From a virus (Duplodnaviria > Heunggongvirae > Uroviricota > Caudoviricetes): a DNA stretch of 51,184 bases. Positions within the stretch are counted from its first letter, which is position 1. Each line of letters starts with the position of its first letter. Below, one piece after another: positions 28,923 to 51,184 of this stretch. The stretch is taken from IMG/VR virus record IMGVR_UViG_2585427745_000020, one strand, 5' to 3'. A program made the translations under genes and the position numbers. Below the pieces are notes generated by a model. It searched no databases. It saw only the letters and a program-made list of their open reading frames with translations, and had not been told where the DNA came from.

Positions 28923-29329
28923 TCGTACCTCCTGTCGGTAAATCTGACACCCTGACCAATAGCCCAGGCTGTCGTGTACTCAATCAGACTTGCCATGCGC
29001 TTCACGCTCATCTGCGCGCTGCTTTCGCGAATGTTGACGTATTCGCCTTCAAGCCCGGGCAAAACATCAGCTTCCTGCTTTGTAGCCACTGCATGACCGC
29101 TGATCAACAAAACCTTCCATTGTTCCGGTTTTAACCATTTATCGCGCCACTGAACTTGCCTAGCGATATCTGCGACCATCGCGTGAAATTTTGCGTTCTG
29201 GTCAAGGTTGCGCTTGTAGTCAGTAATGCGGATGGTGACTGGCTTGTCTTTATCGAGTGGTGTTGCGAGGATGGCATTTATTGCAGCTTGCTGTTGTTGC
29301 TTAGTTCGGAGGAAGATTGTTTGCTTCAT
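28919..29329 (-). CDS. ninB: NinB (recombination mediator, Orf-family)
   Basis: 136 aa from [21 protein letters not shown]...; NinB-like motifs ([18 protein letters not shown]). Confidence 0.8.
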
Positions 29330-29331
29330 CG

Positions 29332-29598
29332 TTACTCCTTCACTTTGACTCCAGCAGCGCGAATCCGTCCTTCGCATTCACTAATTGCGTCGTTATAACC
29401 AAATATGACCCCATCCTCGAAATCGGTAGAAAATGCCTCACGCTCTCTTTTTCCAGGACACTCAATCTCGATAGCTGCTCGCGATGCCTGCCACGCTTGC
29501 CAATACATCTCAACCATATTGGCGTATATTTTATTTTTAGGATCACATCCGGTGTAATTTTCAAACCATTCTTCAAACTGCTTTCTTGATTCGTCCAT
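29332..29598 (-). CDS. Hypothetical protein between helicase and ninB
   Basis: 88 aa; coupled to ninB; no recognised motif. Confidence 0.5.
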   Translation of the reverse strand: MDESRKQFEEWFENYTGCDPKNKIYANMVEMYWQAWQASRAAIEIECPGKREREAFSTDFEDGVIFGYNDAISECEGRIRAAGVKVKE

Positions 29599-32396: not shown

Positions 32397-32675
32397 TCAG
32401 GCCTCGAAGAATTCGCCGTTCTTCGGGGCTTTTTCTTTTGTCAGCATTCTGGCTACTTTCTTAGCCAGTTCCGCCAACTCCTCGTCTTCAACACCCCATT
32501 CAAGAACAGCCAGAAGCATTCCCATTTTTGGGATGAAGCTGTCTTTCCATCGCGAAATTTGCGATTCATTAATTCCTAACGCGTCAGCAACCTTTCGCTG
32601 GCCACGTACAGCAATTCGATTCAGGATGTTGCTTGTAATTGCATTCGCTTTCTTGCGAGTACTTGTAAGTTGCAT
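32397..32675 (-). CDS. cII: CII transcriptional activator
   Basis: 92 aa from [44 protein letters not shown]...LLAVLEWGV, resembling lambda CII. Confidence 0.85.
32402..32440 (+). terminator. oop-like antisense terminator overlapping the 3' end of cII
   Basis: 10-bp stem CCTCGAAGAA / TTCTTCGGGG with 7-nt loop, followed by CTTTTTCTTTT on the plus strand, opposite to cII. Confidence 0.55.
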
Positions 32676-33010: not shown

Positions 33011-33121
33011 ATGCCCTCCATAGTAACCATGAAACAATAATACGATATGTACTTTTAGAATGCAAACAAAAAATACATCTTGTGCATGGATGGTTTTAGT
33101 ACAGAGCGTAATAATAAGGGT
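33011..33121. promoter_or_regulatory. Immunity region (OR operators with divergent PR and PRM)
   Basis: 111-bp AT-rich spacer between divergent cro and cI; individual operators not resolved by eye. Confidence 0.5.
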
Positions 33122-33781
33122 ATGAAAATGAAATGGTATGAACTGGCTAGATCCAGAATGAAAGAGCTCGGCATAACTCAAGAGAAGTTAGCTGAAGAGC
33201 TTGGTATGACGCAGGGTGGAATTGGTCACTGGTTGCGCGGATCTCGTCATCCATCTCTTGACGAGATTGGTGTGGTGTTTAAATACCTTGGTATTGATAA
33301 CGTCTCATTCAACCACGACGGTACATTTTCACCTGTTGGCGAATACTCATCTGCCCCCGTTAAAAAACAATATGAGTACCCTGTTTTTTCTCATGTTCAG
33401 GCCGGGATGTTCTCGCCTGAGCTTAGAACCTTTACCAAAGGTGATGCGGAGAGATGGGTCAGCACAACCAAAAAAGCCAGTGATTGTGCGTTCTGGCTTG
33501 AAGTTGAAGGTAATTCCATGACCGCGCCAACAGGATCCAAGCCAAGCTTTCCTGACGGGATGTTAATTCTCGTTGACCCTGAGCAGGCTGTTGAGCCAGG
33601 TGATTTCTGCATAGCCAGACTTGGTGGTGACGAGTTTACCTTCAAGAAACTGATCAGGGATAGCGGTCAGGTGTTCCTACAGCCACTAAACCCGCAATAT
33701 CCAATGATCCCATGCAATGATAGCTGTTCCGTTGTAGGGAAAGTTATCGCCAGCCAGTGGCCTGAAGAGACATTTAGTTAA
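33122..33781 (+). CDS. cI: CI prophage repressor (HTH N-terminus, S24 autopeptidase C-terminus)
   Basis: 219 aa from MKMKWYELA...; C-terminal half near-identical to lambda CI ([21 protein letters not shown]...), N-terminal DNA-binding domain different. Confidence 0.85.
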
Positions 33782-40053: not shown

Positions 40054-40335
40054 ATGAGCATTCATGATTTGTGTGAAGATCAAGAGCAATGGGCTATGCA
40101 GACCCTTATGGGATCAGGAGTTCTTGCAAGGTGCAGAATCCATAACGATGTAATTTTAGACAGCGGAAATGATGCTTCTTCTGCTTATAAATTAGGAACT
40201 TACCTATATCAAAAAGATAATAGCTGCAACTTATTCAATACTCTTACTGAAGCCCGCGACGCAATAAAGGATGCATATGAATCGTATTGTGGGATTGATG
40301 ATTGCCCACAATGCTCAAAATACATTGACGATTAA
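40054..40335 (+). CDS. Hypothetical Cys-containing small protein
   Basis: 93 aa from ATG 40054 (track ORF starts at GTG 40036); C-terminal CPQC motif. Confidence 0.45.
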   Translation: MSIHDLCEDQEQWAMQTLMGSGVLARCRIHNDVILDSGNDASSAYKLGTYLYQKDNSCNLFNTLTEARDAIKDAYESYCGIDDCPQCSKYIDD

Positions 40336-40423
40336 TAATATGAACAAGTAACTATCCTCGCATTCGCGGGGATTTCTTTTATCTGAACTCGCTACGGCGA
40401 GTTTTGTTTTATGGAGATGATAA

Positions 40424-40591
40424 ATGCACTTCCGAGTCACAGGTGAATGGAATGGAGAACCATTCAACAGAGTTATCGAAGCAGAGAACATCAACGACTG
40501 CTATGACCACTGGATGATATGGGCGCAGATAGCACATGCAGACGTAACCAATATTCGAATTGAAGAACTGAAAGAACACCAAGCCGCCTGA
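40424..40591 (+). CDS. Hypothetical small protein upstream of torI
   Basis: 55 aa MHFRVTGEWNGEPFNRVIEAENINDCYDHWMIWAQIAHADVTNIRIEELKEHQAA; not in the track; followed by a terminator. Confidence 0.4.
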   Translation: MHFRVTGEWNGEPFNRVIEAENINDCYDHWMIWAQIAHADVTNIRIEELKEHQAA

Positions 40592-40606
40592 TGGCGGTTT
40601 TTTATT
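40584..40606 (+). terminator. Rho-independent terminator
   Basis: Stem CCGCC / GGCGG with loop TGAT, followed by TTTTTTATT. Confidence 0.55.
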
Positions 40607-40613
40607 GCCTGAT

Positions 40614-40629
40614 TTGCAGGTTCGATTCC
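40614..40629. repeat. tRNA T-arm-like fragment (TTGCAGGTTCGATTCC), 16/16 identical to argW positions 1054-1069
   Basis: Exact 16-nt match to the argW variable-loop/T-arm segment that precedes the att core; the match stops where the att core would start. Confidence 0.5.
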
Positions 40630-40648
40630 CTATTCGGAGATAGCACTC

Positions 40649-40849
40649 ATGCAACACGAACTACAACCTGATTCACTGGTTGATTTGAAATTCATCATGG
40701 CTGATACTGGCTTTGGTAAAACCTTCATCTATGACCGGATTAAGTCCGGCGACCTGCCAAAAGCCAAAGTTATCCACGGACGCGCAAGATGGTTATATCG
40801 TGACCATTGTGAATTCAAAAATAAGCTCTTAAGCCGCGCCAATGGGTAA
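40649..40849 (+). CDS. torI: Excisionase / recombination directionality factor TorI
   Basis: 66 aa MQHELQPDSLVDLKFIMADTGFGKTFIYDRIKSGDLPKAKVIHGRARWLYRDHCEFKNKLLSRANG, recognised as KplE1 TorI; RBS GGAGA at 40636-40640. Confidence 0.85.
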   Translation: MQHELQPDSLVDLKFIMADTGFGKTFIYDRIKSGDLPKAKVIHGRARWLYRDHCEFKNKLLSRANG

Positions 40850-40922
40850 AATAGCGGGTAAAATATTTTTCACATCTAAAAAACACCATTCCAATCAATC
40901 CCCTGCCGCTTCAAGTAGATGT

Positions 40923-40938
40923 CTGCAGGGGACACTTT
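40923..40938. repeat. attR core of the argW prophage (CTGCAGGGGACACTTT; 13/16 identical to attL)
   Basis: Direct repeat of the argW 3' end downstream of torI; also serves as the left junction of the tandem satellite. Confidence 0.6.
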
Positions 40939-41121
40939 AAAGACCTTTCTCTACATTTCACTTCATTACATAACCACTTAAAAAAACAGTAAGTTATCAC
41001 CGAATCGGCCTGATTTTCATTTCAGTTAATTTCATGACATTACAACCTCGTGATGGTATAAGTGATGGTATTCCCCAGTTCGATATGCAGATACCATCAA
41101 TTTACCAAAATGAGTACAGAT

Positions 41122-42396
41122 ATGGCCATTAATGTGCTTTCCCCCAAACAGATAGAAAACGCCAAGCCGAAGACCAATGATTACAAACTTACCGATGGAG
41201 GGAGTTTGTATCTACTGGTACGAAAGACTGGTGGAAAATACTGGCGTATGAATTATCGTTTTGATGGAAAACAAGTGACATTAGCATTAGGGGTCTACCC
41301 AGATGTCTCACTTGCAACAGCGCGGAAACGGCGTGATGAAGCCAGGCAACTACTAGCCGATGGTCGTGATCCTCGCGAAGCAAAGAAACCCAAAAAGGAA
41401 GACCCAATTTCCCCCACGTTCGAGAGTGTTGCCAGAGAGTGGCATAGTGGAACGATGGGGCATCCTGAGTGGAAAGAGATCACCCGTAAAAAAATTCTCC
41501 GAGAAATGGAAAACCACCTCTTTCCTGCCATCGGTTCAAAGCCTATCGATACGCTCAAAACCCGTGACTTGATGCCGATGCTGGTTGAGATGACTGAGAA
41601 AGGAATTGGTGCCACAACGAGCCGTGTAAAAACCACTATGACGAGCATCTTCCGTTATGCCGTGCAACGTGGAATTGTCGATTACAACCCTGCCCACGAT
41701 CTAAAAGGTGCAATTACGGCCCCCAAAGTACGACATCGCCCCGCACTACCTCTCGAACGTTTACCTGAACTGTTAGCGAAAACGAGAAGTTACACGGGAA
41801 GACCATTGACTCGCCTAGCAGTTCTCTTTTCCCTGCACACTTTTGTGCGATCCAGCGAACTACGACATGCCAGATGGGAGGAGATCGACATTGAAAATGG
41901 GCTATGGACGATACCAGGACAACGTGAAGAGATCGCAGGGGTTAAATTCTCAGATCGGGGTGCAAAGATGGGGGCTGCTCATTATGTCCCGCTATCTAGT
42001 CAGGCTATCGGGGTACTGGAGGATATAAGGAAAATCAGTGGTGAATATCTGCTGGTTTTTCCCGGTGACAGCAACCCATATAAACCGATGAGCGAAAACA
42101 CAGTTAATAAAGCACTGCGAACGATGGGTTACGACACTCAAACTGATGTTTGCTTGCATGGGTTCAGGGCGATGGCCTGCTCTGCACTGACCGAATCAGG
42201 ACTCTGGTCACGCGATGCAGTTGAACGGCAGATGAGTCACCAAGAAAGAAACGAAGTGCGGGCAGCATATGTGCATCTTGCGCAGCACATGCAGGAACGC
42301 CGCAGAATGATGCAATGGTGGTCTAATTATCTGGAACTAAATAAGGACGAATTCCATGCTCCTTATGACTTATCAGGTATTAACATTATCAATTAA
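41122..42396 (+). CDS. Tyrosine integrase of the satellite (P4-type annotation family)
   Basis: ORF 41062-42396; by alignment with IntS the likely start is MAINVLSPKQIENAKPK (41122; 41110 also possible); about 424 aa. Confidence 0.85.
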   Translation: MAINVLSPKQIENAKPKTNDYKLTDGGSLYLLVRKTGGKYWRMNYRFDGKQVTLALGVYPDVSLATARKRRDEARQLLADGRDPREAKKPKKEDPISPTFESVAREWHSGTMGHPEWKEITRKKILREMENHLFPAIGSKPIDTLKTRDLMPMLVEMTEKGIGATTSRVKTTMTSIFRYAVQRGIVDYNPAHDLKGAITAPKVRHRPALPLERLPELLAKTRSYTGRPLTRLAVLFSLHTFVRSSELRHARWEEIDIENGLWTIPGQREEIAGVKFSDRGAKMGAAHYVPLSSQAIGVLEDIRKISGEYLLVFPGDSNPYKPMSENTVNKALRTMGYDTQTDVCLHGFRAMACSALTESGLWSRDAVERQMSHQERNEVRAAYVHLAQHMQERRRMMQWWSNYLELNKDEFHAPYDLSGINIIN

Positions 42397-42426
42397 ATAC
42401 TCTTATAATTTAAAACAGAGGTCATA

Positions 42427-43308
42427 ATGCAGCATTCAACAGAGAATGAAACTATATTCTTAGGAAATCTATGGATTGACAAAAAAATACCACCATTAGA
42501 ATATTGTTCATTTGAACGCGCTTCAAGACTATTAGAATGCGAGATTGATGATTTATTACATCTATACGAAATAGGCGCTTTTAATATCGCATTCAAGGCG
42601 GATGGACTTGCAGTTAGATTTAATGTTAATTTCCTCAATAAAAATCAGAAAATGGAAATTGACTTAATTCATCCCGTATTAACTAATCAATCACTAGAGA
42701 TGGAATTTTCAACAATATGGTATGACCTTAAAGATGATTCCTTTGAACATTTTGAAAATGGGCTTCAAATTATAGGATTTGCCTGTGGTATTTGGTACGC
42801 CGATGATATGATAAGTAACATAAAAAATGGATTAGCTATAGATCCAGATTATGAATTCAGGCTTAAACCGGTAAAAATACGAGATAATGTTTTGATGGCA
42901 ACGGCCTCATATGAAGGAAATAAGGTCATTGAGATTCCATTTGAAGATCTTCTTATCATGCGAAGAGATTTAGAGTTAATATGGAAATCAGTAAAAACTG
43001 GAATTCCTATGCCAAGTTTACTTACGAAAAGAATTTCATCTGAACCTAAAATCCCCAAGCGATTAAATAACACTGCTGAGCATCATGCAAAAAATAGGGA
43101 GGGGTTATTAAATGCAGCCATATATATATTAGCAAAATACCCAAGCGAATGTCGTGGTGAAAGAAAAGAGATAAGTCCTGAAAAGTGGACTAACGCCATA
43201 ATTAAACATTTAGGAGAGCTACCTCCAATATTTATCACTAATGAACAAGAAATCTTAAGAAAATTACGATTAGCGGTTAATCATGCGGGATTAAAACAAA
43301 AGGGGTAG
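42427..43308 (+). CDS. Hypothetical AT-rich cargo protein between integrase and AlpA-like gene
   Basis: 293 aa; RBS AGAGG; markedly lower GC than the flanking integrase and primase genes; no recognised motif. Confidence 0.55.
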   Translation: MQHSTENETIFLGNLWIDKKIPPLEYCSFERASRLLECEIDDLLHLYEIGAFNIAFKADGLAVRFNVNFLNKNQKMEIDLIHPVLTNQSLEMEFSTIWYDLKDDSFEHFENGLQIIGFACGIWYADDMISNIKNGLAIDPDYEFRLKPVKIRDNVLMATASYEGNKVIEIPFEDLLIMRRDLELIWKSVKTGIPMPSLLTKRISSEPKIPKRLNNTAEHHAKNREGLLNAAIYILAKYPSECRGERKEISPEKWTNAIIKHLGELPPIFITNEQEILRKLRLAVNHAGLKQKG

Positions 43309-43410
43309 ACTGAAACAATCTACAGGTAGAGTTGATTACACTACCTTCACAGCATTTTGATATCCCCATAGTATCTGCCGTGTTCATTACATAATACGGC
43401 AGGTAATTTC

Positions 43411-43626
43411 ATGACATTAAAAACTTATCCTATCACTGGACATGCCCGCCCACGAGCTACTGCTGACTTTTTGCAAATAAGTACGGTTACTCTCTGGCGC
43501 TGGGAAAAGAACAATCCTGAATTTCCCAAATCTATACGCATTTCAAAACGGGTATCTGTTTACGATGCACAAGAAATTAGGCAGTGGGTTAAAGCTCAAT
43601 CAGCAGGATTGGAGGAAGTAGTGTAA
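43411..43626 (+). CDS. AlpA/Vis-family DNA-binding protein (excisionase-like regulator)
   Basis: 71 aa; MerR-like winged-helix pattern (ADFLQISTVTLWRWEKNNPEFPKSIRISKRVSVYDAQEIRQWV). Confidence 0.7.
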   Translation: MTLKTYPITGHARPRATADFLQISTVTLWRWEKNNPEFPKSIRISKRVSVYDAQEIRQWVKAQSAGLEEVV

Positions 43627-43675
43627 TGACAATATTAACAAAGCTGGGGAGAAAAAAGCCTCCCCAACGTATTAA

Positions 43676-43870
43676 TCAATTCTTTGGTTCTAAACCTCGG
43701 CTTTGTAACTCTTTGCGTAGAATGCGCTTGATCCAAGCCGCTAGCGATTCATCGCCATCCTGCTGTTGTGCTTGTTCCATCAGTTCACGCAGTTCAGGGT
43801 CAAGTCGGAACTGGAATGGCGGATTCCCACGTCTTTCATTTTTGTGTGTTGACACGTCAATTACACCCAT
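43676..43870 (-). CDS. Ribbon-helix-helix (Arc/MetJ-type) regulator of the satellite
   Basis: 64 aa; PPFQFRLDPELRELMEQ beta-strand/helix motif; divergently transcribed from the downstream operon. Confidence 0.6.
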   Translation of the reverse strand: MGVIDVSTHKNERRGNPPFQFRLDPELRELMEQAQQQDGDESLAAWIKRILRKELQSRGLEPKN

Positions 43871-43884
43871 TGTAATGTATTTAT

Positions 43885-43903
43885 GTGTAATGACACATTA
43901 CAC
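43885..43903. promoter_or_regulatory. Palindromic operator candidate (GTGTAATG-ACA-CATTACAC)
   Basis: Perfect 8-bp inverted repeat with 3-bp spacer in the divergent promoter region, 15 bp upstream of the RHH start. Confidence 0.45.
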
Positions 43904-43986
43904 ACAGAAAAACAAAATAGCAACGCCCCGGAGTGTTTGCAGCAGCACCGAGGCGTCTGACCAGCACGTTATATGAGGTAACGAAG

Positions 43987-44163
43987 ATGGCTAAACAGAA
44001 GTGTACCTGGTTATTTGCGGCGATCAACCGCAGTCAACGCAATGCCCGTCCTGTGATGTTAAGGATCACCGCAGATAACGAACGATCAGCGCGGCGCAGA
44101 CTTGCCCCGGACTATGTACTGAGCTTTGCCGGGCGCATTCCCTGCGGAGGTGAACATGCGTAA
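43987..44163 (+). CDS. Hypothetical small basic protein
   Basis: 58 aa from ATG 43987 (MAKQKCTWLFAAINRSQRNARPVMLRITADNERSARRR...); track ORF begins at 43933. Confidence 0.35.
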   Translation: MAKQKCTWLFAAINRSQRNARPVMLRITADNERSARRRLAPDYVLSFAGRIPCGGEHA

Positions 44164-44515
44164 TTATCCGCACCCCGGCGAACGCTGGCAGCATGAACGT
44201 GGCTGGACGGTCACGATTATCCGATTAATAGAAGCCTCGCCCTCTGTGGCGCTGGTTAATCCTGAATTCAGCTGTGAAGTGCTGATACGTCATGACAGCG
44301 ACAACCAGCTTTCTTCCTGCCCTCTGGCATGGTTTGAACAGCGGTATACGCGCCTGTTTGATGTACCGCTCTTTAAGCCTGCACCAGCTCCTGCAGGCAG
44401 TAGTGGTTCCGGCCCGCTGACACTGCATCCGTCTGTGCTATTTATCCGCTGGCGGGAGCGTACCATACGGCGTTCTGCTGAGCCTGACGACGGTCACTAT
44501 TCAAAGTTTCTCTGA
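44156..44515 (+). CDS. Hypothetical protein
   Basis: 119 aa from ATG 44156 with RBS GGAGG (44146-44150). Confidence 0.5.
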   Translation: MRNYPHPGERWQHERGWTVTIIRLIEASPSVALVNPEFSCEVLIRHDSDNQLSSCPLAWFEQRYTRLFDVPLFKPAPAPAGSSGSGPLTLHPSVLFIRWRERTIRRSAEPDDGHYSKFL

Positions 44516-44546
44516 CAAAATACCGCTGAAAACGGAGTAATTCACG

Positions 44547-44831
44547 ATGAATATTTCAAACGGGCTCAACGGTGCTCAGGGCCACACTTTGCCTGAAAAA
44601 CACAATACCGGTGCTTTTGCCTATGGGTTGTCAGAGGACAGTTTCGGAAAGCTGACCCGCGCAAGAAATGCCTGCGACATGCTCCAGCTTCTCTTTTCTG
44701 AATACCCGTCTCAGGCCGGAGCACTGGACGCAGGCTGTGCGCCTGGTGTCGCCGCGCTGATGGAGTACCTGCTGGCAGATTTGACGGATATTGCACACAG
44801 CTGCGCACTGATTGAAGGAGGTGCCAGATGA
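44547..44831 (+). CDS. Hypothetical protein
   Basis: 94 aa; ATGA overlap with the next gene. Confidence 0.5.
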   Translation: MNISNGLNGAQGHTLPEKHNTGAFAYGLSEDSFGKLTRARNACDMLQLLFSEYPSQAGALDAGCAPGVAALMEYLLADLTDIAHSCALIEGGAR

Positions 44832-45211
44832 ACCAGCCGCAGGTTTCCATTTTCCCGGTAGAAATGACCACCGCGCTTTACCGGCGGGCTATTGCTTCAG
44901 CATGGCGGCAGAAAATGCTGAACGAAACTGGCAGTGATCAGTATGGTCCGCACAGCCTGACAGTGGAGCGTATTGAAATGGCCATTGCGCTGCATATCGA
45001 GTGCGTACTGATTAACGAGTACGGCGAAGTGCAGGGCGCCGCTGCCGCGCTGGCACTGCTGACTGACATGCTGGAGCCGTCACTGCTGACCGCGCCGCCG
45101 GTACTGACCGCGCGCGGCTGTGAAGTGATGGCGGAGATGTACCGCACGCTTCCGGCGGCCTTTGATGACTTCTGCAGTACCGGTGTGACGTTGTATGAGG
45201 GGGAAGTATGA
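44828..45211 (+). CDS. Hypothetical protein upstream of the primase
   Basis: 127 aa; coupled to the primase gene (ATGA overlap). Confidence 0.5.
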   Translation: MNQPQVSIFPVEMTTALYRRAIASAWRQKMLNETGSDQYGPHSLTVERIEMAIALHIECVLINEYGEVQGAAAALALLTDMLEPSLLTAPPVLTARGCEVMAEMYRTLPAAFDDFCSTGVTLYEGEV

Positions 45212-47880
45212 CAATACAGACGGTTACGCAGGTTTCAGCCGCCGCACGGGGGAAATGGCCCGTTATTCTGCAGATGCTGCGTATTGATGTACCTGAAAAC
45301 GGCAGGCACGGTCCCTGCCCGAAATGTGGGGGCAAGGATCGTTTTCGCCTTGATGACCTTGACGGGCGCGGGACGTGGATCTGCAGCCAGTGTGGCAATG
45401 GTGACGGTCTGGATCTGGTTAAGCTCGTAACCGGTTACAGCGTCAGAAAGGCTGCGCAGGAGGTGGCGCAGGTGCTTAATGTGCCGGATATGCAGGAACT
45501 GCCTGTTAAGCCTGCCAGACAAAAAGCCCCTAAACGCGACATGGGTCTTACCGTGGCGGCGCTGATGAAAGAGAGCCACACGGGAGAAAGCGCCTATCTG
45601 ACAGGAAAAGGGTTCGCCGGATACCCGGCCTCTCTGACCGGAAGCGTACAGCATATCAGCGGTAAGGATTTTCCTGCCGGTTCCCTGCTGTTACCACTCA
45701 CGACCAACACCGGAGCCGTGACCGGTGCACAGCTTATCGCCCCGACGGGTGAAAAAAGCATACTGCCCGGCAGCACGATGAAAGGCGCGTTTGTGTCGCT
45801 CAGCCCGTTACCGTCTGAACCACCGATACAGGTGGTGATTACCGAAGGTTACGCTACGGCGCTGACGGTAAGCCAGCTCACTGCCGGATGCGTAGTGGCT
45901 GCCATATCTGCGGGCAACCTGCCCAATGTGGCGCAGTCGCTGCGGGCACGCTGGCCTGAGGTAAAAATTATCATCGCCGGTGATAACGATTTTCAGGACG
46001 GGGGTGAGAATCCCGGCAGAGCCTTTGCTGAACGGGCGGCAAAAGCTGTTGGCGGCTGGATGACGCTGCCACCAGGAGAGATTAAGGCTGACTGGAATGA
46101 CTTTCATCGGGAGCACGGTATTACCCGTGCCCGTGAAGCCTTTCGCAACGGTCTGGTACTGTGCGGGGAAAGCCGCACGCAACTGCCGCACGGGTTCCGT
46201 CTTACCCAGGAATATCTCTGGTATGAAAAGCAGGTACAGCGCAACGGTGAGACGGAGATCCAGAACGTCAAAATATGCAGCCCGCTGCGCGTGACGGCAA
46301 TCACCTGCGATGCCGATGGCGGTAACTTCGGACGACTGCTGGAATGGGAAGATACGTGGGGTGAGTGTCGCCGCTGGGCGATGCCGATGGAAATGCTGAG
46401 CGGCAGTGGTGAGGAACTGCGCCGGGTACTGCTGGTTAACGGGCTGTCTTATATCAGCACCACCGGTGAGGCACGCGCACGCCTGATGGAATATATCTCA
46501 CTGTGTAAACCGGAACGCCGCGTGACCTGCGTCAGTCGTACTGGCTGGCATGGTCAGGTTTACGTCCTGCAGGATGAGGTCAGCGGTGAAGGTGCAGAGG
46601 GTGTCATTCTCCAGACCACTTCCGTGCAGGGGCGTGATTTCCGCGTGTCGGGCACAACAGAGGAATGGCGGGAGCATGTATCCCGCTACTGTACCGGCAA
46701 CTCCCGCGTGGCATTTGCTGTCAGCCTGGCCTTTGCTGCACCACTGTTACGGCTGGTTGGTATGGACGGCGGCGGCTACCACCTCAAAGGGGAATCGACA
46801 GACGGTAAGACCACCACCATGAAAGCAGCAACCTCCGTCTGCGGCGGGCCTGACTACTGGCAGACATGGCGGGCCACCGGCAACGCGCTGGAGGGATGCG
46901 CCAGCCGCCGCAACGATGCCGCCATGATGCTTGATGAGATCCGGGAAGTTGACGGACGCGAGGCAGGCAATATCGCCTACATGCTGGCAAACGGTCAGGG
47001 CAAGGGCCGTGCCGGTACGGACGGTGAGCTGCGTACCCGTAAGCAGTGGCGCCTGTTGTTCTTTTCAACTGGCGAGTTGTCTCTGACCGAACATGCGGCA
47101 AAGGCCGGTGAGCGTACTTTTGCCGGGATGGAAGTCAGGATGATCCAGATCCCCAGTGATTCCGGGAAGTTTGGCGTTTTTGAGGAGCTGCACGGCTTCG
47201 ACAGCGGCAAGGCTCTGGCAGAGCATCTTGAATGGGCCACGTCCTGCTACTACGGTTCGCCGTTCCGGGAGTGGCTGAAAGCACTGACCGCTGATCTTAA
47301 CGGACTAACGGCACAGGCAAAATCGCTGATGAAGGAATATGCTGCCGCCCTGACTCCGAAAGATGCAGGCAATCAGGTGGGCCGGGCTGTGAACCGCTTT
47401 GCACTGGTGGCGATGGCAGGTGAACTGGCAACCCGTCTGGGTATCACCGGCTGGCCTGAGGGTGAAGCACTGCGGGCAACCCGCGTCTGCCTGAACGCAT
47501 GGCTGAAAGATCGCGGGCACACCGCCAATCAGGAAGATATCGCCGCACTGGAGCAGGTTCGCAGTTTCTTTACCGCGAATCAGTACAGCCGCTTTGCAGA
47601 CTGGTATGACGAGCGCAACCGCCCCGGCAATATGGTGGGCTGGCGAAGGGTGGAGAAAGGCAGTACCGCGCAGGGCACGGAAGCTGTCACTACGTTCTAT
47701 GTCATGCCGTCCGGCTGGAAAGAAATCTGCAGGGGATTTGACCCGCGCAAGGTGGCGCGTCTGTGCGCAGATCGTGGATACCTGCTGCCCTCCACTGATG
47801 GCAAACTCCAGACAACCATTCGCCCGCCAGAGATGAATCCCCGCAGGCTCTATGTCTTCAACAGCGAGGTGCCGGGTTAA
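45208..47880 (+). CDS. Primase-helicase (P4 alpha-like: zinc ribbon, TOPRIM, D5-type NTPase)
   Basis: 890 aa; N-terminal CPKCGG...CSQCG zinc-binding motif; Walker A-like GESTDGKTT; typical satellite replicase architecture. Confidence 0.9.
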   Translation: MTIQTVTQVSAAARGKWPVILQMLRIDVPENGRHGPCPKCGGKDRFRLDDLDGRGTWICSQCGNGDGLDLVKLVTGYSVRKAAQEVAQVLNVPDMQELPVKPARQKAPKRDMGLTVAALMKESHTGESAYLTGKGFAGYPASLTGSVQHISGKDFPAGSLLLPLTTNTGAVTGAQLIAPTGEKSILPGSTMKGAFVSLSPLPSEPPIQVVITEGYATALTVSQLTAGCVVAAISAGNLPNVAQSLRARWPEVKIIIAGDNDFQDGGENPGRAFAERAAKAVGGWMTLPPGEIKADWNDFHREHGITRAREAFRNGLVLCGESRTQLPHGFRLTQEYLWYEKQVQRNGETEIQNVKICSPLRVTAITCDADGGNFGRLLEWEDTWGECRRWAMPMEMLSGSGEELRRVLLVNGLSYISTTGEARARLMEYISLCKPERRVTCVSRTGWHGQVYVLQDEVSGEGAEGVILQTTSVQGRDFRVSGTTEEWREHVSRYCTGNSRVAFAVSLAFAAPLLRLVGMDGGGYHLKGESTDGKTTTMKAATSVCGGPDYWQTWRATGNALEGCASRRNDAAMMLDEIREVDGREAGNIAYMLANGQGKGRAGTDGELRTRKQWRLLFFSTGELSLTEHAAKAGERTFAGMEVRMIQIPSDSGKFGVFEELHGFDSGKALAEHLEWATSCYYGSPFREWLKALTADLNGLTAQAKSLMKEYAAALTPKDAGNQVGRAVNRFALVAMAGELATRLGITGWPEGEALRATRVCLNAWLKDRGHTANQEDIAALEQVRSFFTANQYSRFADWYDERNRPGNMVGWRRVEKGSTAQGTEAVTTFYVMPSGWKEICRGFDPRKVARLCADRGYLLPSTDGKLQTTIRPPEMNPRRLYVFNSEVPG

Positions 47881-47914
47881 GGCTTTGCGTGAGTCTTATT
47901 TATTAAGGGTAACA

Positions 47915-48103
47915 GGTGAAACAGGTGGAACAACCGTATTTTACAAGGGCTGAACCTGTTTCACCTTCTGAAATAGTGAGGTGGAACAGATGTAACGCCA
48001 GCCAATCCGCTGTTCCACCTTGTTACCCGCGATGTTCCACCGGTGCAGTGTATATAAATACTTTATAAAACAAAGCAGTAACACATGTTTCACCTGTTCC
48101 ACC
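47915..48103. repeat. Iteron cluster (eight TGTTYCACC/GGTGRAACA octamers): ori/crr-like primase binding region
   Basis: Octamers at 47915, 47924, 47957, 47980, 48011, 48033, 48086, 48095 in both orientations, with an AT-rich block (48050-48075); resembles P4 ori/crr type I iterons. Confidence 0.65.
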
Positions 48104-48191
48104 GCATCAGGGACATAAAGCAGACTGAAACAGAGGGCATTTTTATCTGGCTGGCTTTCATAGCCACGTCTGAATAACCGCAAGCGCCCGT

Positions 48192-48209
48192 TGTGCCAGC
48201 CACCACACA
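48192..48209 (+). promoter_or_regulatory. Ogr/Delta-type late promoter dyad (TGT-N12-ACA)
   Basis: TGTGCCAGCCACCACACA about 73 nt upstream of the sid-like start codon. Confidence 0.5.
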
Positions 48210-48281
48210 CTGATCACCGATAGTGTGCTTGTGTCAGCCACGACACAATTGACGTAACGAACCAACCCGACAGGAGAAGTC

Positions 48282-49025
48282 ATGAACAACACCGCAGTGA
48301 ATAACAACCTTTCCACTTTTCCGGCTGTAACGCAGCGGGCACTGGAAACCATGAACACAGCCAGAAACGCATGGCTTGAAGCACGTCGTCAGCAGAAAGC
48401 GGCAGCGGATAATATTGCGACAATCCGCCAGCGTCGCGCTGAAATGGAAGCCACGACGAACACACTGAATGAGGAGTGGCGCACGCTGTTTCGTGAAAGT
48501 CAGGGCGTGGTCTCAAAGGAAATGAAAAAACTGCGCACGGAAATTGCGCTGGGACGAGAAACGCTTGAGGATTTTGATGAGCTGCTGGCGGCTCAGGAAA
48601 GCGAAAATGCACTTTTGCCGCAGAAAGCTGCAGAATTAGCCGGAAAGTATATCCACGCGCATAATATTCTTGTGGATATTCGTGCAAAACAAATCTGGGA
48701 AGATTTTATGCAGTCGCATGGAAAAGCGCTTATTCAGACGCTGAGCCTGCTTAAATCCACAATGGGCCGGGAAGCCAGTGCCGTTGTGGGTGTGGTGAAT
48801 TCAGTTAATGACCCGGACACAGTGCTGAAAGACTTTATTCATAAACATATCACCAGACCGGCTCTGGCTAACGATGCGATGCCTGAACAGGACCCGGTGT
48901 TTAAACTGGCGGGAATTGCCCCGGATTATGCGGCGCGTCTGGATTTCAGTAATCAACTCTCTCCGGCAGCTATGCATAAAATTAAGGTTCGTCAGGAACT
49001 TGCTGAGAAGGAGAAAGCAGTATGA
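48282..49025 (+). CDS. sid: Sid-like external scaffold / capsid size determination protein
   Basis: 247 aa; RBS AGGAGA; Psu/Sid-family motif (EDFMQSHGKAL); directly upstream of psu. Confidence 0.55.
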   Translation: MNNTAVNNNLSTFPAVTQRALETMNTARNAWLEARRQQKAAADNIATIRQRRAEMEATTNTLNEEWRTLFRESQGVVSKEMKKLRTEIALGRETLEDFDELLAAQESENALLPQKAAELAGKYIHAHNILVDIRAKQIWEDFMQSHGKALIQTLSLLKSTMGREASAVVGVVNSVNDPDTVLKDFIHKHITRPALANDAMPEQDPVFKLAGIAPDYAARLDFSNQLSPAAMHKIKVRQELAEKEKAV

Positions 49026-49573
49026 CGGCCCGAGGCACGCCTGACCAGGCACTTACCAGTTTTCGGAATGCCCGTATTCTGTGGGCCGGACATAGTGAGA
49101 GCCGAAAAGCCGTTGAACAACAGATAGCATCTCTCCTTGCTGCCACAGAAAAACCAGCAGATTATGCCCGACAGCTCGAATTACTGCGGGAACGTCTGGA
49201 TGTGCTGAAATGGCAAATTAACTGTGCTGCGCGCGAATGCATTTACTCGCAGCATTTACTGATGGAGGCCTGCACAGAAGCAGCTCTCAGCAATTTTATG
49301 CAGGCGAATGGGGCAGCCCTGACATCTGCACTGGCTCCGTTCCTGAAGGGACGCGGAGGGGTTGACGTTGCGTCCCGTATATTACGCAGTGCTCTGGTTC
49401 GCCAGCTGGCAATAACACCGCCTGAAATTGCCGGGGATTATCGTGAGATCCTGGATGAATCCGGTTTGATACCTGACCCCGGGATGATTCGTGATTGCCA
49501 GGACTCTTACACCCCGGCACAACATCTGCATTTTCAGCAACGCCTGAATGACATTAACGATATACAGGAGTGA
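49022..49573 (+). CDS. psu: Psu-like polarity suppression / capsid decoration protein
   Basis: 183 aa; KWQINCAA, SNFMQANGAALTSALAP and YTPAQHLHF resemble remembered P4 Psu blocks. Confidence 0.7.
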   Translation: MTARGTPDQALTSFRNARILWAGHSESRKAVEQQIASLLAATEKPADYARQLELLRERLDVLKWQINCAARECIYSQHLLMEACTEAALSNFMQANGAALTSALAPFLKGRGGVDVASRILRSALVRQLAITPPEIAGDYREILDESGLIPDPGMIRDCQDSYTPAQHLHFQQRLNDINDIQE

Positions 49574-49851
49574 TTTTAATGGCACTTAAATGTCCGGAAT
49601 GCGGTACAGTTGCACACGCCAGAACAGCAGCCTATGAAGCTCCGTCAGTTAAACGCTCGTGGTATCAGTGCCAGAATCTGGAATGTTCCTGCACATTTAC
49701 GGCACTGGAGAGTGTGGATAAGATAATCATGAAACCCCGGCGCAATGAACAGGAACCAGACAAATCACAACCCCCGGTAAAACAACAGCAAACGCTCAAT
49801 CGCTATGGCTCCGCGTCAAAACTGTCAAGCCGTCAGCAGATTCCTGTCTGA
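49570..49851 (+). CDS. Ogr/Delta-family zinc-finger late transcription activator
   Basis: 93 aa; CPECG...22 aa...CQNLEC zinc finger as in P2 Ogr and P4 Delta. Confidence 0.85.
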   Translation: MILMALKCPECGTVAHARTAAYEAPSVKRSWYQCQNLECSCTFTALESVDKIIMKPRRNEQEPDKSQPPVKQQQTLNRYGSASKLSSRQQIPV

Positions 49852-49871
49852 TTAGAAAAAACGCCCACGTA

Positions 49872-49897
49872 ATCCCGGTCGAGTACCGGGATTTTTA
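49872..49897 (+). terminator. Rho-independent terminator after the late operon
   Basis: 8-bp stem ATCCCGGT / ACCGGGAT with loop CGAGT, followed by TTTTAACG. Confidence 0.7.
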
Positions 49898-50335
49898 ACG
49901 CCTTTTCCCTGGCTGGCCTGAGAGCGCATGAGTGCATGTCTATAGCGCATGAAAACGCATGAACCTTATGCACCATTTTTGACGAGAAAGCCCTTGTGTG
50001 GTGGCTTCTGAGACGATTTATGAGGTGCATGAAAACCAGTCTGTTAAGCGAAGCGGGCAGGCGTGCGGGGCTGTTCGCATCAACATAAAAATAACGGGCT
50101 GATATAGTTATAAAATCAAATGAACTCTTTTAGTACGACATGGGTATGTGCGCCAGTAGCAACGTCAGCCCCCAAGCTTTCTATTGTTCTTTTCTGTTGT
50201 ACCATCAATACGTACCGATTAGCTCCTAAGCATCAATATCAGTTTGAACGTATTGCTTTGAACTAATTTTTAGATGATTTTTTTCATTAAAAAATTATAA
50301 TGTTGTAGATAAAAAGAGAATCTTATAGAGGCGTT

Positions 50336-51184
50336 ATGTCAAATAAAGTTGATGTTTTTTTGAGCCGAGTTAGCCATGTATCACAGTTTGTATTGGTGGC
50401 ATTTGCTATTTTTGGATATTTTTATACAGTAAGACCAATTTACCAAAAGGAACTTTTATCAGAAGAAATTGCAAAAAAAGAAGTTGAATTAAATAAATTA
50501 AAAACAGCAATGGAAAACTCCCAAAAATTTATAGAGAATAATAAAATCTTACGAAAAGAATTGGAGGGAAGCATTGCCAAACTTGATTTACAATACAAAG
50601 AATCAGAAGAAAAATTAAATTCAATAAATTCTGAACTAAGAAAAACTTTAAATGAACTAAATAAACAAAAGACCATTTCCAAAAGAGCGGTCAATGCAAA
50701 CAACAAGAATCTTGAATCTGTTTTCTGGGAGAATTTTTCGGGGCTAGTTGGAGTAGTTTATATTTCTAAGAGCACAGATTTTGTGAACAATACACTGGGT
50801 GACGCCAAAACAGCCTATAATACTCCTAGTAATTTATATATATCTCCTTATGATGCAATTAATGAAGCATTAAAAAATGGCAATCATAACTTTATCTCAA
50901 GTTCAGAAAATGTCCCTGAAAATATCCGCAACAAAATTCTAGCAAAGATCCGTCGCGCTATTGAAAAAAATAAGATTTCATTAACAAAAAAACCTATCGG
51001 TTTTGATGAAAAAATTAATAGTCTGATAAAAACTATAGAGTCAACTAAGTTACGCAAAAATGAAAACGAAATAATGAAAAATAACACTGCAGAAAGAGAA
51101 CTATCATCTTATATTTTCCTGATAAATGGTCAATCAAGAATCCGCGCCATGGATTTCTTAAAAGACATTCAACATTTAGACTAA
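50336..51184 (+). CDS. Hypothetical AT-rich cargo protein (N-terminal transmembrane helix, long coiled-coil)
   Basis: 282 aa; very AT-rich; perfect TATAAT at 50296-50301 and RBS AGAGG upstream; stop codon is the last three bases of the window. Confidence 0.55.
   Translation: MSNKVDVFLSRVSHVSQFVLVAFAIFGYFYTVRPIYQKELLSEEIAKKEVELNKLKTAMENSQKFIENNKILRKELEGSIAKLDLQYKESEEKLNSINSELRKTLNELNKQKTISKRAVNANNKNLESVFWENFSGLVGVVYISKSTDFVNNTLGDAKTAYNTPSNLYISPYDAINEALKNGNHNFISSSENVPENIRNKILAKIRRAIEKNKISLTKKPIGFDEKINSLIKTIESTKLRKNENEIMKNNTAERELSSYIFLINGQSRIRAMDFLKDIQHLD

Follow-up and report, generated by a model that had tools for sequence, protein, structure and literature searches.

Introduction

Elements of the KplE1 (CPS-53)/HK620/Sf6/Kapi1 type integrate at argW by means of a torI-attP-intS module. 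KplE1 is bordered by a duplicated 16-nt sequence and the core of the module is CTGCAGGGGACACCAT(T) (PMC2951348), and in Kapi1 a 17-bp duplication was found at the sequenced host-prophage junctions, with torI inside the prophage (PMC8787464). Sites for TorI are defined as GTTCG, GATCG, or GTCCG, and TorI represses PintS through GTTCG sites; mutation of GTTCG abolishes the function of a TorI site at attL (PMC2951348). PtorI has been described as uncharacterized (PMC2951348), and no report of a characterized torI promoter was found in the literature searched.

A 16-nt repeat that joins argW to the region just upstream of torI is already public in the record of CUS-3 (CP000711), where it is read as att cores. 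Positions 1-16 and 40192-40207 of that record, labeled "attL core" and "attR core," are the same two 16-mers described below, and the record stops short of torI. The accessible literature yielded no account of a T-arm block conserved ahead of an RDF gene.

Results and Discussion

Layout of the recombination module

The window, i.e., the whole 51,184-nt stretch of DNA analyzed here, has at its left end yfdC-like DNA and argW, followed by intS and then a ~40-kb P22-like (Lederbergvirus-type) prophage. The features that bear on the analysis are as follows.

1009..1083, plus strand: argW, tRNA-Arg(CCT), the integration target on the attL side (ARAGORN)
1054..1069, plus strand: reference 16-mer in argW, covering the variable loop, the T-stem 5' strand, the T-loop, and the first CC of the 3' strand
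1069..1084, plus strand: attL copy of the 16-nt core CTGCAGGGGACACCAT (core per PMC2951348, PMC8787464)
1091..1178, plus strand: five TorI sites of the P' arm (motif definition, PMC2951348), namely GTTCG 1091-95, GTCCG 1111-15, GTTCG 1154-58, GTTCG 1164-68, and GATCG 1174-78
1245..2402, plus strand: intS integrase (Arm-DNA-bind_3 + Phage_int_M + Phage_integrase)
40424..40591, plus strand: 55-aa small ORF, homolog of the lambda pre-xis ORF and the final pL-side operon gene ahead of torI
40581..40605, plus strand: intrinsic terminator, hairpin plus T-run, common to lambda
40605..40617, plus strand: TTGCCTGATTTGC, TTGC-N5-TTGC, the cII-binding site of pI in the HK620 record
40614..40629, plus strand: 16/16 copy of the argW T-arm
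40617..40630, plus strand: deeply conserved block CAGGTTCGATTCC(C)
40636..40639, plus strand: torI Shine-Dalgarno (SD) GGAG, ~6 nt 3' of the block, a spacing fixed in most lineages
40649..40849, plus strand: torI, RDF/excisionase, 66 aa
40844..40851 and 40856..40863, plus strand: two IntS arm-type sites GGGTAAAA at the torI stop codon
40900..40935, plus strand: attR crossover region with inverted repeat, palindromic half-sites, and core CTGCAGGGGACAC

The argW segment 1054-1069 is the B core-type arm of attB/attL, directly left of the crossover, and the attR core CTGCAGGGGACAC lies at 40923-40935. The functional P arm begins with the GGGTAAAA pair at the torI stop codon; the pair is assigned as IntS sites of this arm by sequence identity to the attL P' TAAA motif of PMC2951348.

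Two further symmetries were observed around the right-hand crossover. CCCCTGC (40900-06) and GCAGGGG (40925-31) form an inverted repeat whose first half lies in the P arm and whose second half lies in the core; the repeat is conserved in nearly all genera examined and is possibly a core-type or architectural element. The palindrome TGTC-TGCAGGG-GACA (40920-34) at attR/attP suggests a 7-bp overlap, TGCAGGG, flanked by half-sites of consensus G(A/G)TGT(C/A), to which the GATTCC of the bacterial B arm is the poorest match.

A second copy of the argW T-arm precedes torI

The sequence TTGCAGGTTCGATTCC is present twice in the window, inside argW at 1054-1069 (+) and, in the identical orientation, at 40614-40629 (+), directly after the intrinsic terminator and 20-35 nt 5' of torI. 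No other copy was found in the window even at <=2 mismatches, which bears out the 16/16 match to argW that the sequence-only reading had reported. Two matches to TTGCAGGTTCGATTCC were obtained in 0/100 dinucleotide-preserving shuffles, ruling out a chance pair.

Relatives of the module retain different parts of the argW sequence around the same core of identity. The E. coli form keeps the TTGC left flank (16/16), a Serratia locus (L012) matches argW at 17/18 positions with a TT.C left flank and a CCTG right flank, and a Pantoea locus (L015) matches at 15/16 with a GC left flank and CCTG on the right. Because separate lineages keep different argW-matching flanks (TTGC, GC, CCTG), the block is of argW-type T-arm origin, and the concern that it might reflect no more than the general likeness of tRNA T-loops is answered by these flanks together with the shuffles. 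From the TTGC and CCTG flanks and from the role of argW as the target of the module, we infer that the source was probably argW itself. The retention of different flanks also means that the ancestral piece comprised at least argW 1054-1071, so that its right end falls inside the suggested 7-bp overlap TGCAGGG (flanks TGTC/GACA, 40920-40934).

The sequence-only reading had also stated that the match ends exactly where the att core begins. In E. coli the fragment does correspond to the part of argW that abuts the core, although it overlaps the published 16-nt core at C1069. The coincidence is specific to E. coli, the argW match being 2 nt longer in Serratia L012 and Pantoea L015. The full 16/16 extent is likewise an E. 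coli property, and the deeply conserved portion is CAGGTTCGATTCC (40617-40629). The gap between fragment and attR core is 293 nt and contains torI (40649-40849). A complete T-arm or cloverleaf was not found at the fragment, ARAGORN returning only argW in the window, and the 3' stem strand of the T-arm is missing from the E. coli upstream copy. At the level of sequence, these comparisons show that the argW T-arm is present a second time, as a partly overlapping copy, in the upstream block.

The block marks the left edge of the module across enterobacterial genera

TorI homologs were collected from one genome per species (24 loci), from IMG/VR, and from sequenced phages, and were grouped into 34 sequence clusters at 97% identity over torI. 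Every relative module targets argW, with a core TGCAGGGGAC(A/G)CCA ~75 nt past the stop codon of the RDF gene. Across enterobacterial clades, (C)AGGTTCGATT(C/T)CC is placed 27-28 nt ahead of the RDF ATG; the block consensus, 13-14 bp in length, is CAGGTTCGATT(C/T)CC, of which the E. coli 16-mer is the local form.

A block with exact GTTCGATT is present in 27/34 clusters, one of the 34 has a degenerate version, and six have none. Carriers include E. coli, Enterobacter, Citrobacter-type, Serratia, Pantoea, and Edwardsiella elements and Erwinia and Salmonella phages; the block was found in 85/85 E. coli-type sequences, in KplE1, HK620, Sf6, and Kapi1, and in K-12. It was not found in Dryocola L014, Tatumella L016, Rouxiella L017, Klebsiella phage Chronis, or Erwinia phage EhrS_49, and modules without an intact block persist in 7/34 clusters and in the latter two phages. 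The prospect raised earlier that the fragment would be absent from related elements has therefore a mixed outcome, with some modules lacking it and 27/34 clusters carrying it.

Sequence 5' of the block is unrelated between clades, so that conservation of the torI-attP-intS module starts, on its left side, with the block. The block also stands ahead of divergent RDF genes, the RDF being only 51% identical in Salmonella phage g341c and 39% identical in Erwinia phage phiEt88, and Erwinia phage Midgardsormr38 carries it upstream of its RDF gene as well. The block is missing from closer relatives of phiEt88, which indicates that a short upstream segment is exchanged horizontally and that the apparent independence of lineages is inflated. 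Tandem duplications with both copies intact occur in L131/L132/L134/Midgardsormr38, in L153, and in L010, and the block takes the form CAGTTCG-N5-CAGTCCG in L120 and CAGTTCG-N5-CAGTCTG in L124.

Two side observations concern this boundary. Two more unrelated upstream contexts (one with a different terminator, one of K-12 type) meet the module at the same T-run in E. coli prophages other than this one. In g341c (L156, 1735-1998), gp19 is annotated from a GTG 19 codons 5' of the likely ATG and so spans the block; this N-terminal extension is probably an annotation artifact.

The block is conserved above its surroundings

Base frequencies were computed from 28 non-redundant block-bearing sequences. 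The majority-base frequency is 0.8-0.99 over CAGGTTCGATT.CC as against 0.4-0.65 in both flanks, and the corresponding values for torI codon positions 1/2/3 are 0.89/0.94/0.73, which places the block at about the level of second codon positions between variable flanks. GTTCGATT (40620-40627) is invariant in 17/17 diverse sequences, and the distance from block to SD is near-constant (~6 nt). For the 16-mer, the 85 E. coli-type sequences show 5 minor alleles over 16 sites, singletons or doubletons only, compared with 246 minor alleles over 67 torI third codon positions; E. coli prophages do carry rare SNPs inside the block. The pattern indicates purifying selection, with the caveat that the upstream segment moves horizontally (g341c, phiEt88).

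A candidate protein-binding element

With moderate confidence, we propose that the block is a protein-binding cis element coupling torI expression to the recombination proteins. The block is non-coding, fixed ~6 nt before the torI SD, and near-invariant across enterobacterial genera, and it contains a TorI-type pentamer, GTTCG, at 40620-40624. As the left border of a KplE1/HK620/Sf6-type (argW-integrating) torI-attP-intS module, it may have been retained because the recombination proteins of the module bind DNA there, ahead of torI. Two candidate binders can be named: IntS, because the block has the sequence of the B half-site that IntS must recognize at argW, and TorI, because the block holds the recognition pentamer GTTCG. 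Through binding of either kind, torI expression would come to depend on how much IntS and TorI is present.

Several features speak in favor of TorI as the putative binder. The block lies directly before the protein's own gene, and the variants of L120 and L124 (CAGTTCG followed after N5 by CAGTCCG or CAGTCTG, respectively) and the second GTTCG/GTCCG found 12 nt downstream in several lineages point the same way; by analogy, so may the (C/G)TTCGAT(T/A) motif before int in P4 and P4-like satellites. At the position 12 nt downstream of the block pentamer, E. coli has ATTCG, L010 and L019 have GTTCG, and L018, L120, and L125 have GTCCG; other relatives have AACCG or GTACG, which do not match the TorI motif. 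The attL fragments on which five TorI sites, and only five, were reported include the identical T-arm (PMC2951348), and this argues against strong TorI binding at the block. The invariant ATT that follows GTTCG in the block is not common to the attL TorI sites, and phiEt88 keeps the block though its P' arm is without GTTCG sites.

For IntS, the case in favor is that the conserved span equals the B half-site and that the block persists where arm sites and RDF have diverged and the core target has stayed the same. The block is identical to the attB arm that abuts the overlap (argW 1054-1069, ending at the presumed cleavage point before TGCAGGG). That IntS must contact the B arm during recombination follows from the tyrosine-recombinase mechanism, and a similar contact is predicted for the block. 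Counting against IntS, the C site of E. coli itself is without TTCGAT. No inverted GACA-type partner half-site was found downstream of the fragment, and a lone core-type half-site would be expected to bind integrase weakly.

Excision has a narrow optimum of the IntS:TorI ratio. A more specific and rather unlikely version of the proposal is that the block acts as an "attB mimic," a sensor that would set torI expression by this ratio. IntS would bridge the GGGTAAAA arm sites to the block, looping out the 220-bp torI gene, and TorI would bind the block instead or as well.

The main rival to a cis element is a functionless boundary relic, that is, a neutral, hitch-hiking scrap of argW captured once, by illegitimate or by aberrant site-specific recombination, and kept at a joint of module exchange, which we consider possible though doubtful. 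Such a relic would account for a position that coincides, in every clade, with the left limit of module homology, for the loss of the block in several lineages without loss of the module, for the movement of the short upstream segment between divergent RDF genes (g341c, phiEt88), and for the SNPs inside the block within E. coli. It would also agree with the dispensability of the block in vitro: according to the literature, a 135-bp attR beginning at window 40826 (torI 3' end) suffices for in vitro excision, and the fragment lies outside it and is thus dispensable for in vitro recombination. It accords poorly, however, with 8-13 consecutive near-invariant positions beside a randomized 6-nt spacer and 5' flank and torI third positions at 0.73, with the fixed distance to the SD, with tandem duplications in which both copies are intact, and with the lack of common polymorphisms in E. 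coli. The suggestion of the sequence-only reading that the fragment stems from an older integration with another crossover point is possible as an origin, but a merely decaying relic would not have been kept so far above neutral sites.

Promoter, RNA, and coding readings of the region

The first four bases of the 16-mer (TTGC) double as the second repeat of TTGC-N5-TTGC (40605-40617). One alternative is that the block is part of a cII-dependent, pI-type promoter reading across torI into intS when lysogeny is established. The HK620 record has a promoter at the equivalent of 40604-40642 with its cII site at 40605-40617, the Sf6 record annotates a putative cII-dependent pI here, the cII box of lambda pI, directly ahead of xis, can be aligned with it, and a start ~25 nt past the second TTGC would fall beyond the torI SD, like lambda pI. 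Nevertheless, the spacing is N5, whereas that of the prophage's own pRE-type box TTGCTTGTAATTGC (32629-32642) is N6; the first TTGC is TTAC in K-12-type copies; and the TTGC boxes are missing upstream in the Edwardsiella, Pantoea, and Serratia clades though the block is conserved there. The block would moreover be promoter spacer, which is normally not conserved, and a consensus scan found no sigma-70-like hexamers. We regard this reading as improbable, and because the spacing is N5 and not N6, we take TTGC-N5-TTGC to be what is left, in degenerate form, of the cII box of lambda pI. As a separate observation, TTGCTTGTAATTGC (plus strand) lies inside the cII-like gene and is the expected pRE-type cII/C1 box facing the repressor gene (33080-33781). 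No sigma-70 promoter was found at the fragment by the consensus scan.

An RNA element, in which a T-arm mimic in the torI 5' leader would be bound by tRNA-binding factors or would fold to control translation, is very improbable. Hairpins of the form GACAGG-TTCGATTC-CCTGTC are possible in Edwardsiella and P. stewartii, and Serratia retains CAGG...CCTG. For 17 sequences, however, RNAalifold predicted neither a consensus structure nor covarying pairs, E. coli and Citrobacter-type versions have no 3' stem strand, ARAGORN finds nothing at the fragment, and no Rfam match rises above noise, the best in the region scoring 24 bits against a gathering threshold of 55. That sub-threshold match is to the sRNA STnc130 (40572-40699, minus strand, E=0.2), antisense to the torI leader, and is probably noise from the terminator hairpin. 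An N-terminal coding extension of torI was also rejected, given an in-frame TGA at 40610-40612 with no later start codon and the frame shift between lineages (27 vs 28 nt spacing).

The block is neither half of a split attP nor an att core

The sequence-only reading had noted that torI lies between the two halves of the tRNA 3' region and had offered insertion of torI into an ancestral attP as one explanation; torI would have split an attP bearing the whole argW 3' half into fragment and core. The order and orientation of the pieces are as in argW, and the E. coli fragment stops where the core begins. Comparison of attP regions among relatives does not bear this out. In most non-E. coli relatives, attP is TTCGATGTA/TGCAGGGGACACCAT, with a T-loop remnant of its own adjoining the crossover, and in fuller form (A)ATTCGATGTA stands directly before TGCAGGGGACACCAT; TTCGATGTA thus abuts TGCAGGG in these attP sites. 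The upstream copy in turn reaches CCTG in L012 and L015. Instead of abutting, the two tRNA-like pieces therefore share ~11-13 nt, and this overlap contradicts the idea that torI entered one tRNA-like ancestor of attP. Functional IntS arm sites, moreover, lie in the P arm between the pieces. We give a split attP very little credence. A candidate degenerate core after the fragment was also discarded: GGAGATAGCACTCAT compared with GGGGACACCATTTAT agrees at 10/15 positions past a 2-nt gap, the likeness is weaker in relatives, and the SD explains it.

That the two 16-mers are the true att cores, or an alternative crossover for another integrase, is the least probable reading of all, since the CP000711 labels and a direct repeat near both prophage ends are opposed by the KplE1 and Kapi1 evidence that sets the core at CTGCAGGGGACACCAT(T), by a right flank CTATTCG so unlike the argW overlap TGCAGGG that strand exchange at the upstream copy is not expected, and by an excisionase gene that would fall outside the phage. 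The CUS-3 core labels are apparently a boundary mis-annotation, the KplE1/Kapi1 crossover lying 293 bp further right. These comparisons show that the block is neither the missing half of attP nor an att core.

Possible origin of the block

Legitimate recombination between attP and attB joins B to P' and intS, so a B arm fused to the RDF gene cannot arise in this way. The argW block may instead have been captured by an aberrant event. The likeliest route would be a recombination, promoted by integrase, between attB or attL and a secondary site a short way 5' of torI; a later, imprecise excision would have trimmed the bacterial side of the capture. Such a secondary-site capture would explain both the orientation of the block and why it ends, on the right, at or within the overlap. 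Simple illegitimate recombination involving argW is an alternative route. No intermediate forms of the capture were found among the relatives surveyed.

A neighboring P4-like satellite

A P4-like satellite follows in tandem directly after the prophage attR (window 40936-51184), with int at 41107-42396, an AlpA-like gene at 43411-43626, primase at 45208-47880, and psu/delta-like genes at 48282-49851. At the prophage-satellite junction the core is just 13 nt (CTGCAGGGGACAC), followed by TTTAAAG in place of CAT. The same tandem arrangement is present in E. coli CUVET17-972, in which a second core copy to the right was not found and an IS1 lies near that end.

Just before the satellite int (41052-41098), (C/G)TTCGAT(T/A) occurs between direct and inverted Int arm-type repeats. 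The motif is also present in L016, L029, L030, L036, L113, and L130 and in P4 (L289, 3926-3965, minus strand). The idea that it signals targeting of argW was ruled out, as P4, a leuX integrant, has CTTCGATT at the same place; since P4 integrates at leuX, the satellite motif is a family feature and not a copy of the argW T-loop. It is possibly a Vis/Int operator or a promoter element.

Significance

The analysis corrects a likely mis-annotation, as the "att cores" of CUS-3 put the excisionase gene outside the phage record, and it removes the tempting reading of an attP split by torI. It also identifies a short element, conserved across genera, before the RDF gene of a well-studied module in which the promoter and control of torI have been described as uncharacterized. 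Binding of IntS or TorI to the block, if it occurs, would give the excision decision an added feedback step and would illustrate how a phage can retain a duplicate of its bacterial target site for regulatory use. Should neither protein bind, the block would be the scar of an aberrant integrase event, one that can be dated and can serve as a marker for module exchange. We expect the findings to interest mainly specialists in phage integration, as a modest extension of what is known of att-site relics and of RDF/Int operator sites.

Comparison with known systems

Beyond the modules themselves, viral contigs were scanned for a T-arm followed by an SD and start codon (GGTTCGAATCC...GGAG...ATG). 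Among the matches listed (at least 120), 103 were true tRNA genes, and no RDF-like gene accompanied the other 17 of those listed.

The window carries the module of KplE1 (CPS-53), HK620, Sf6, and Kapi1, with argW, the 16-nt core, five GTTCG-type TorI sites, the GGGTAAAA arm sites in attL, and a torI that is 100% identical. The accessible papers list attL, attR, intS, and torI for it, and the T-arm block is not among the mapped sites. CUS-3 (CP000711) has the same two 16-mers, placed alike with respect to int and the small pre-torI ORF, the difference being that they are there called attL and attR cores.

Window positions 40350-40611 (the 55-aa ORF plus two terminators) are ~96% identical to lambda 29098-29359, just before xis. 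The likeness to the lambda pI/cII box extends to TTGC repeats ahead of the RDF gene, after the same terminator, where lambda has ttttttCTTGCGTGTAATTGCGGAGACTTTGCGATG and the window has ttttttATTGCCTGATTTGCAGGTTCGATTCCCTATTCGGAGATAGCACTCATG. In contrast to lambda, the spacing is N5 and not N6, the window adds ~18 nt (AGGTTCGATTCCCTATTC) between the second TTGC and the SD, and in other genera the block is conserved without the TTGC boxes.

Lambda is also the model for aberrant, Int-promoted recombination at secondary sites and for capture of host DNA of the specialized-transduction type. Such an event would yield a host-derived half-att (B arm) with its inner end at or inside the overlap and an arbitrary outer end, which is what the block looks like; for the block, this origin is one that we purely infer. 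Finally, the operators of PintS (TorI, IntS) and of P4 Pint (Vis, Int) share with the block a short TTCG motif beside the start of a recombination gene. Unlike these operators, the block, a candidate binding site, precedes the RDF gene itself, is single (sometimes duplicated), and is identical to the T-arm of the target tRNA.
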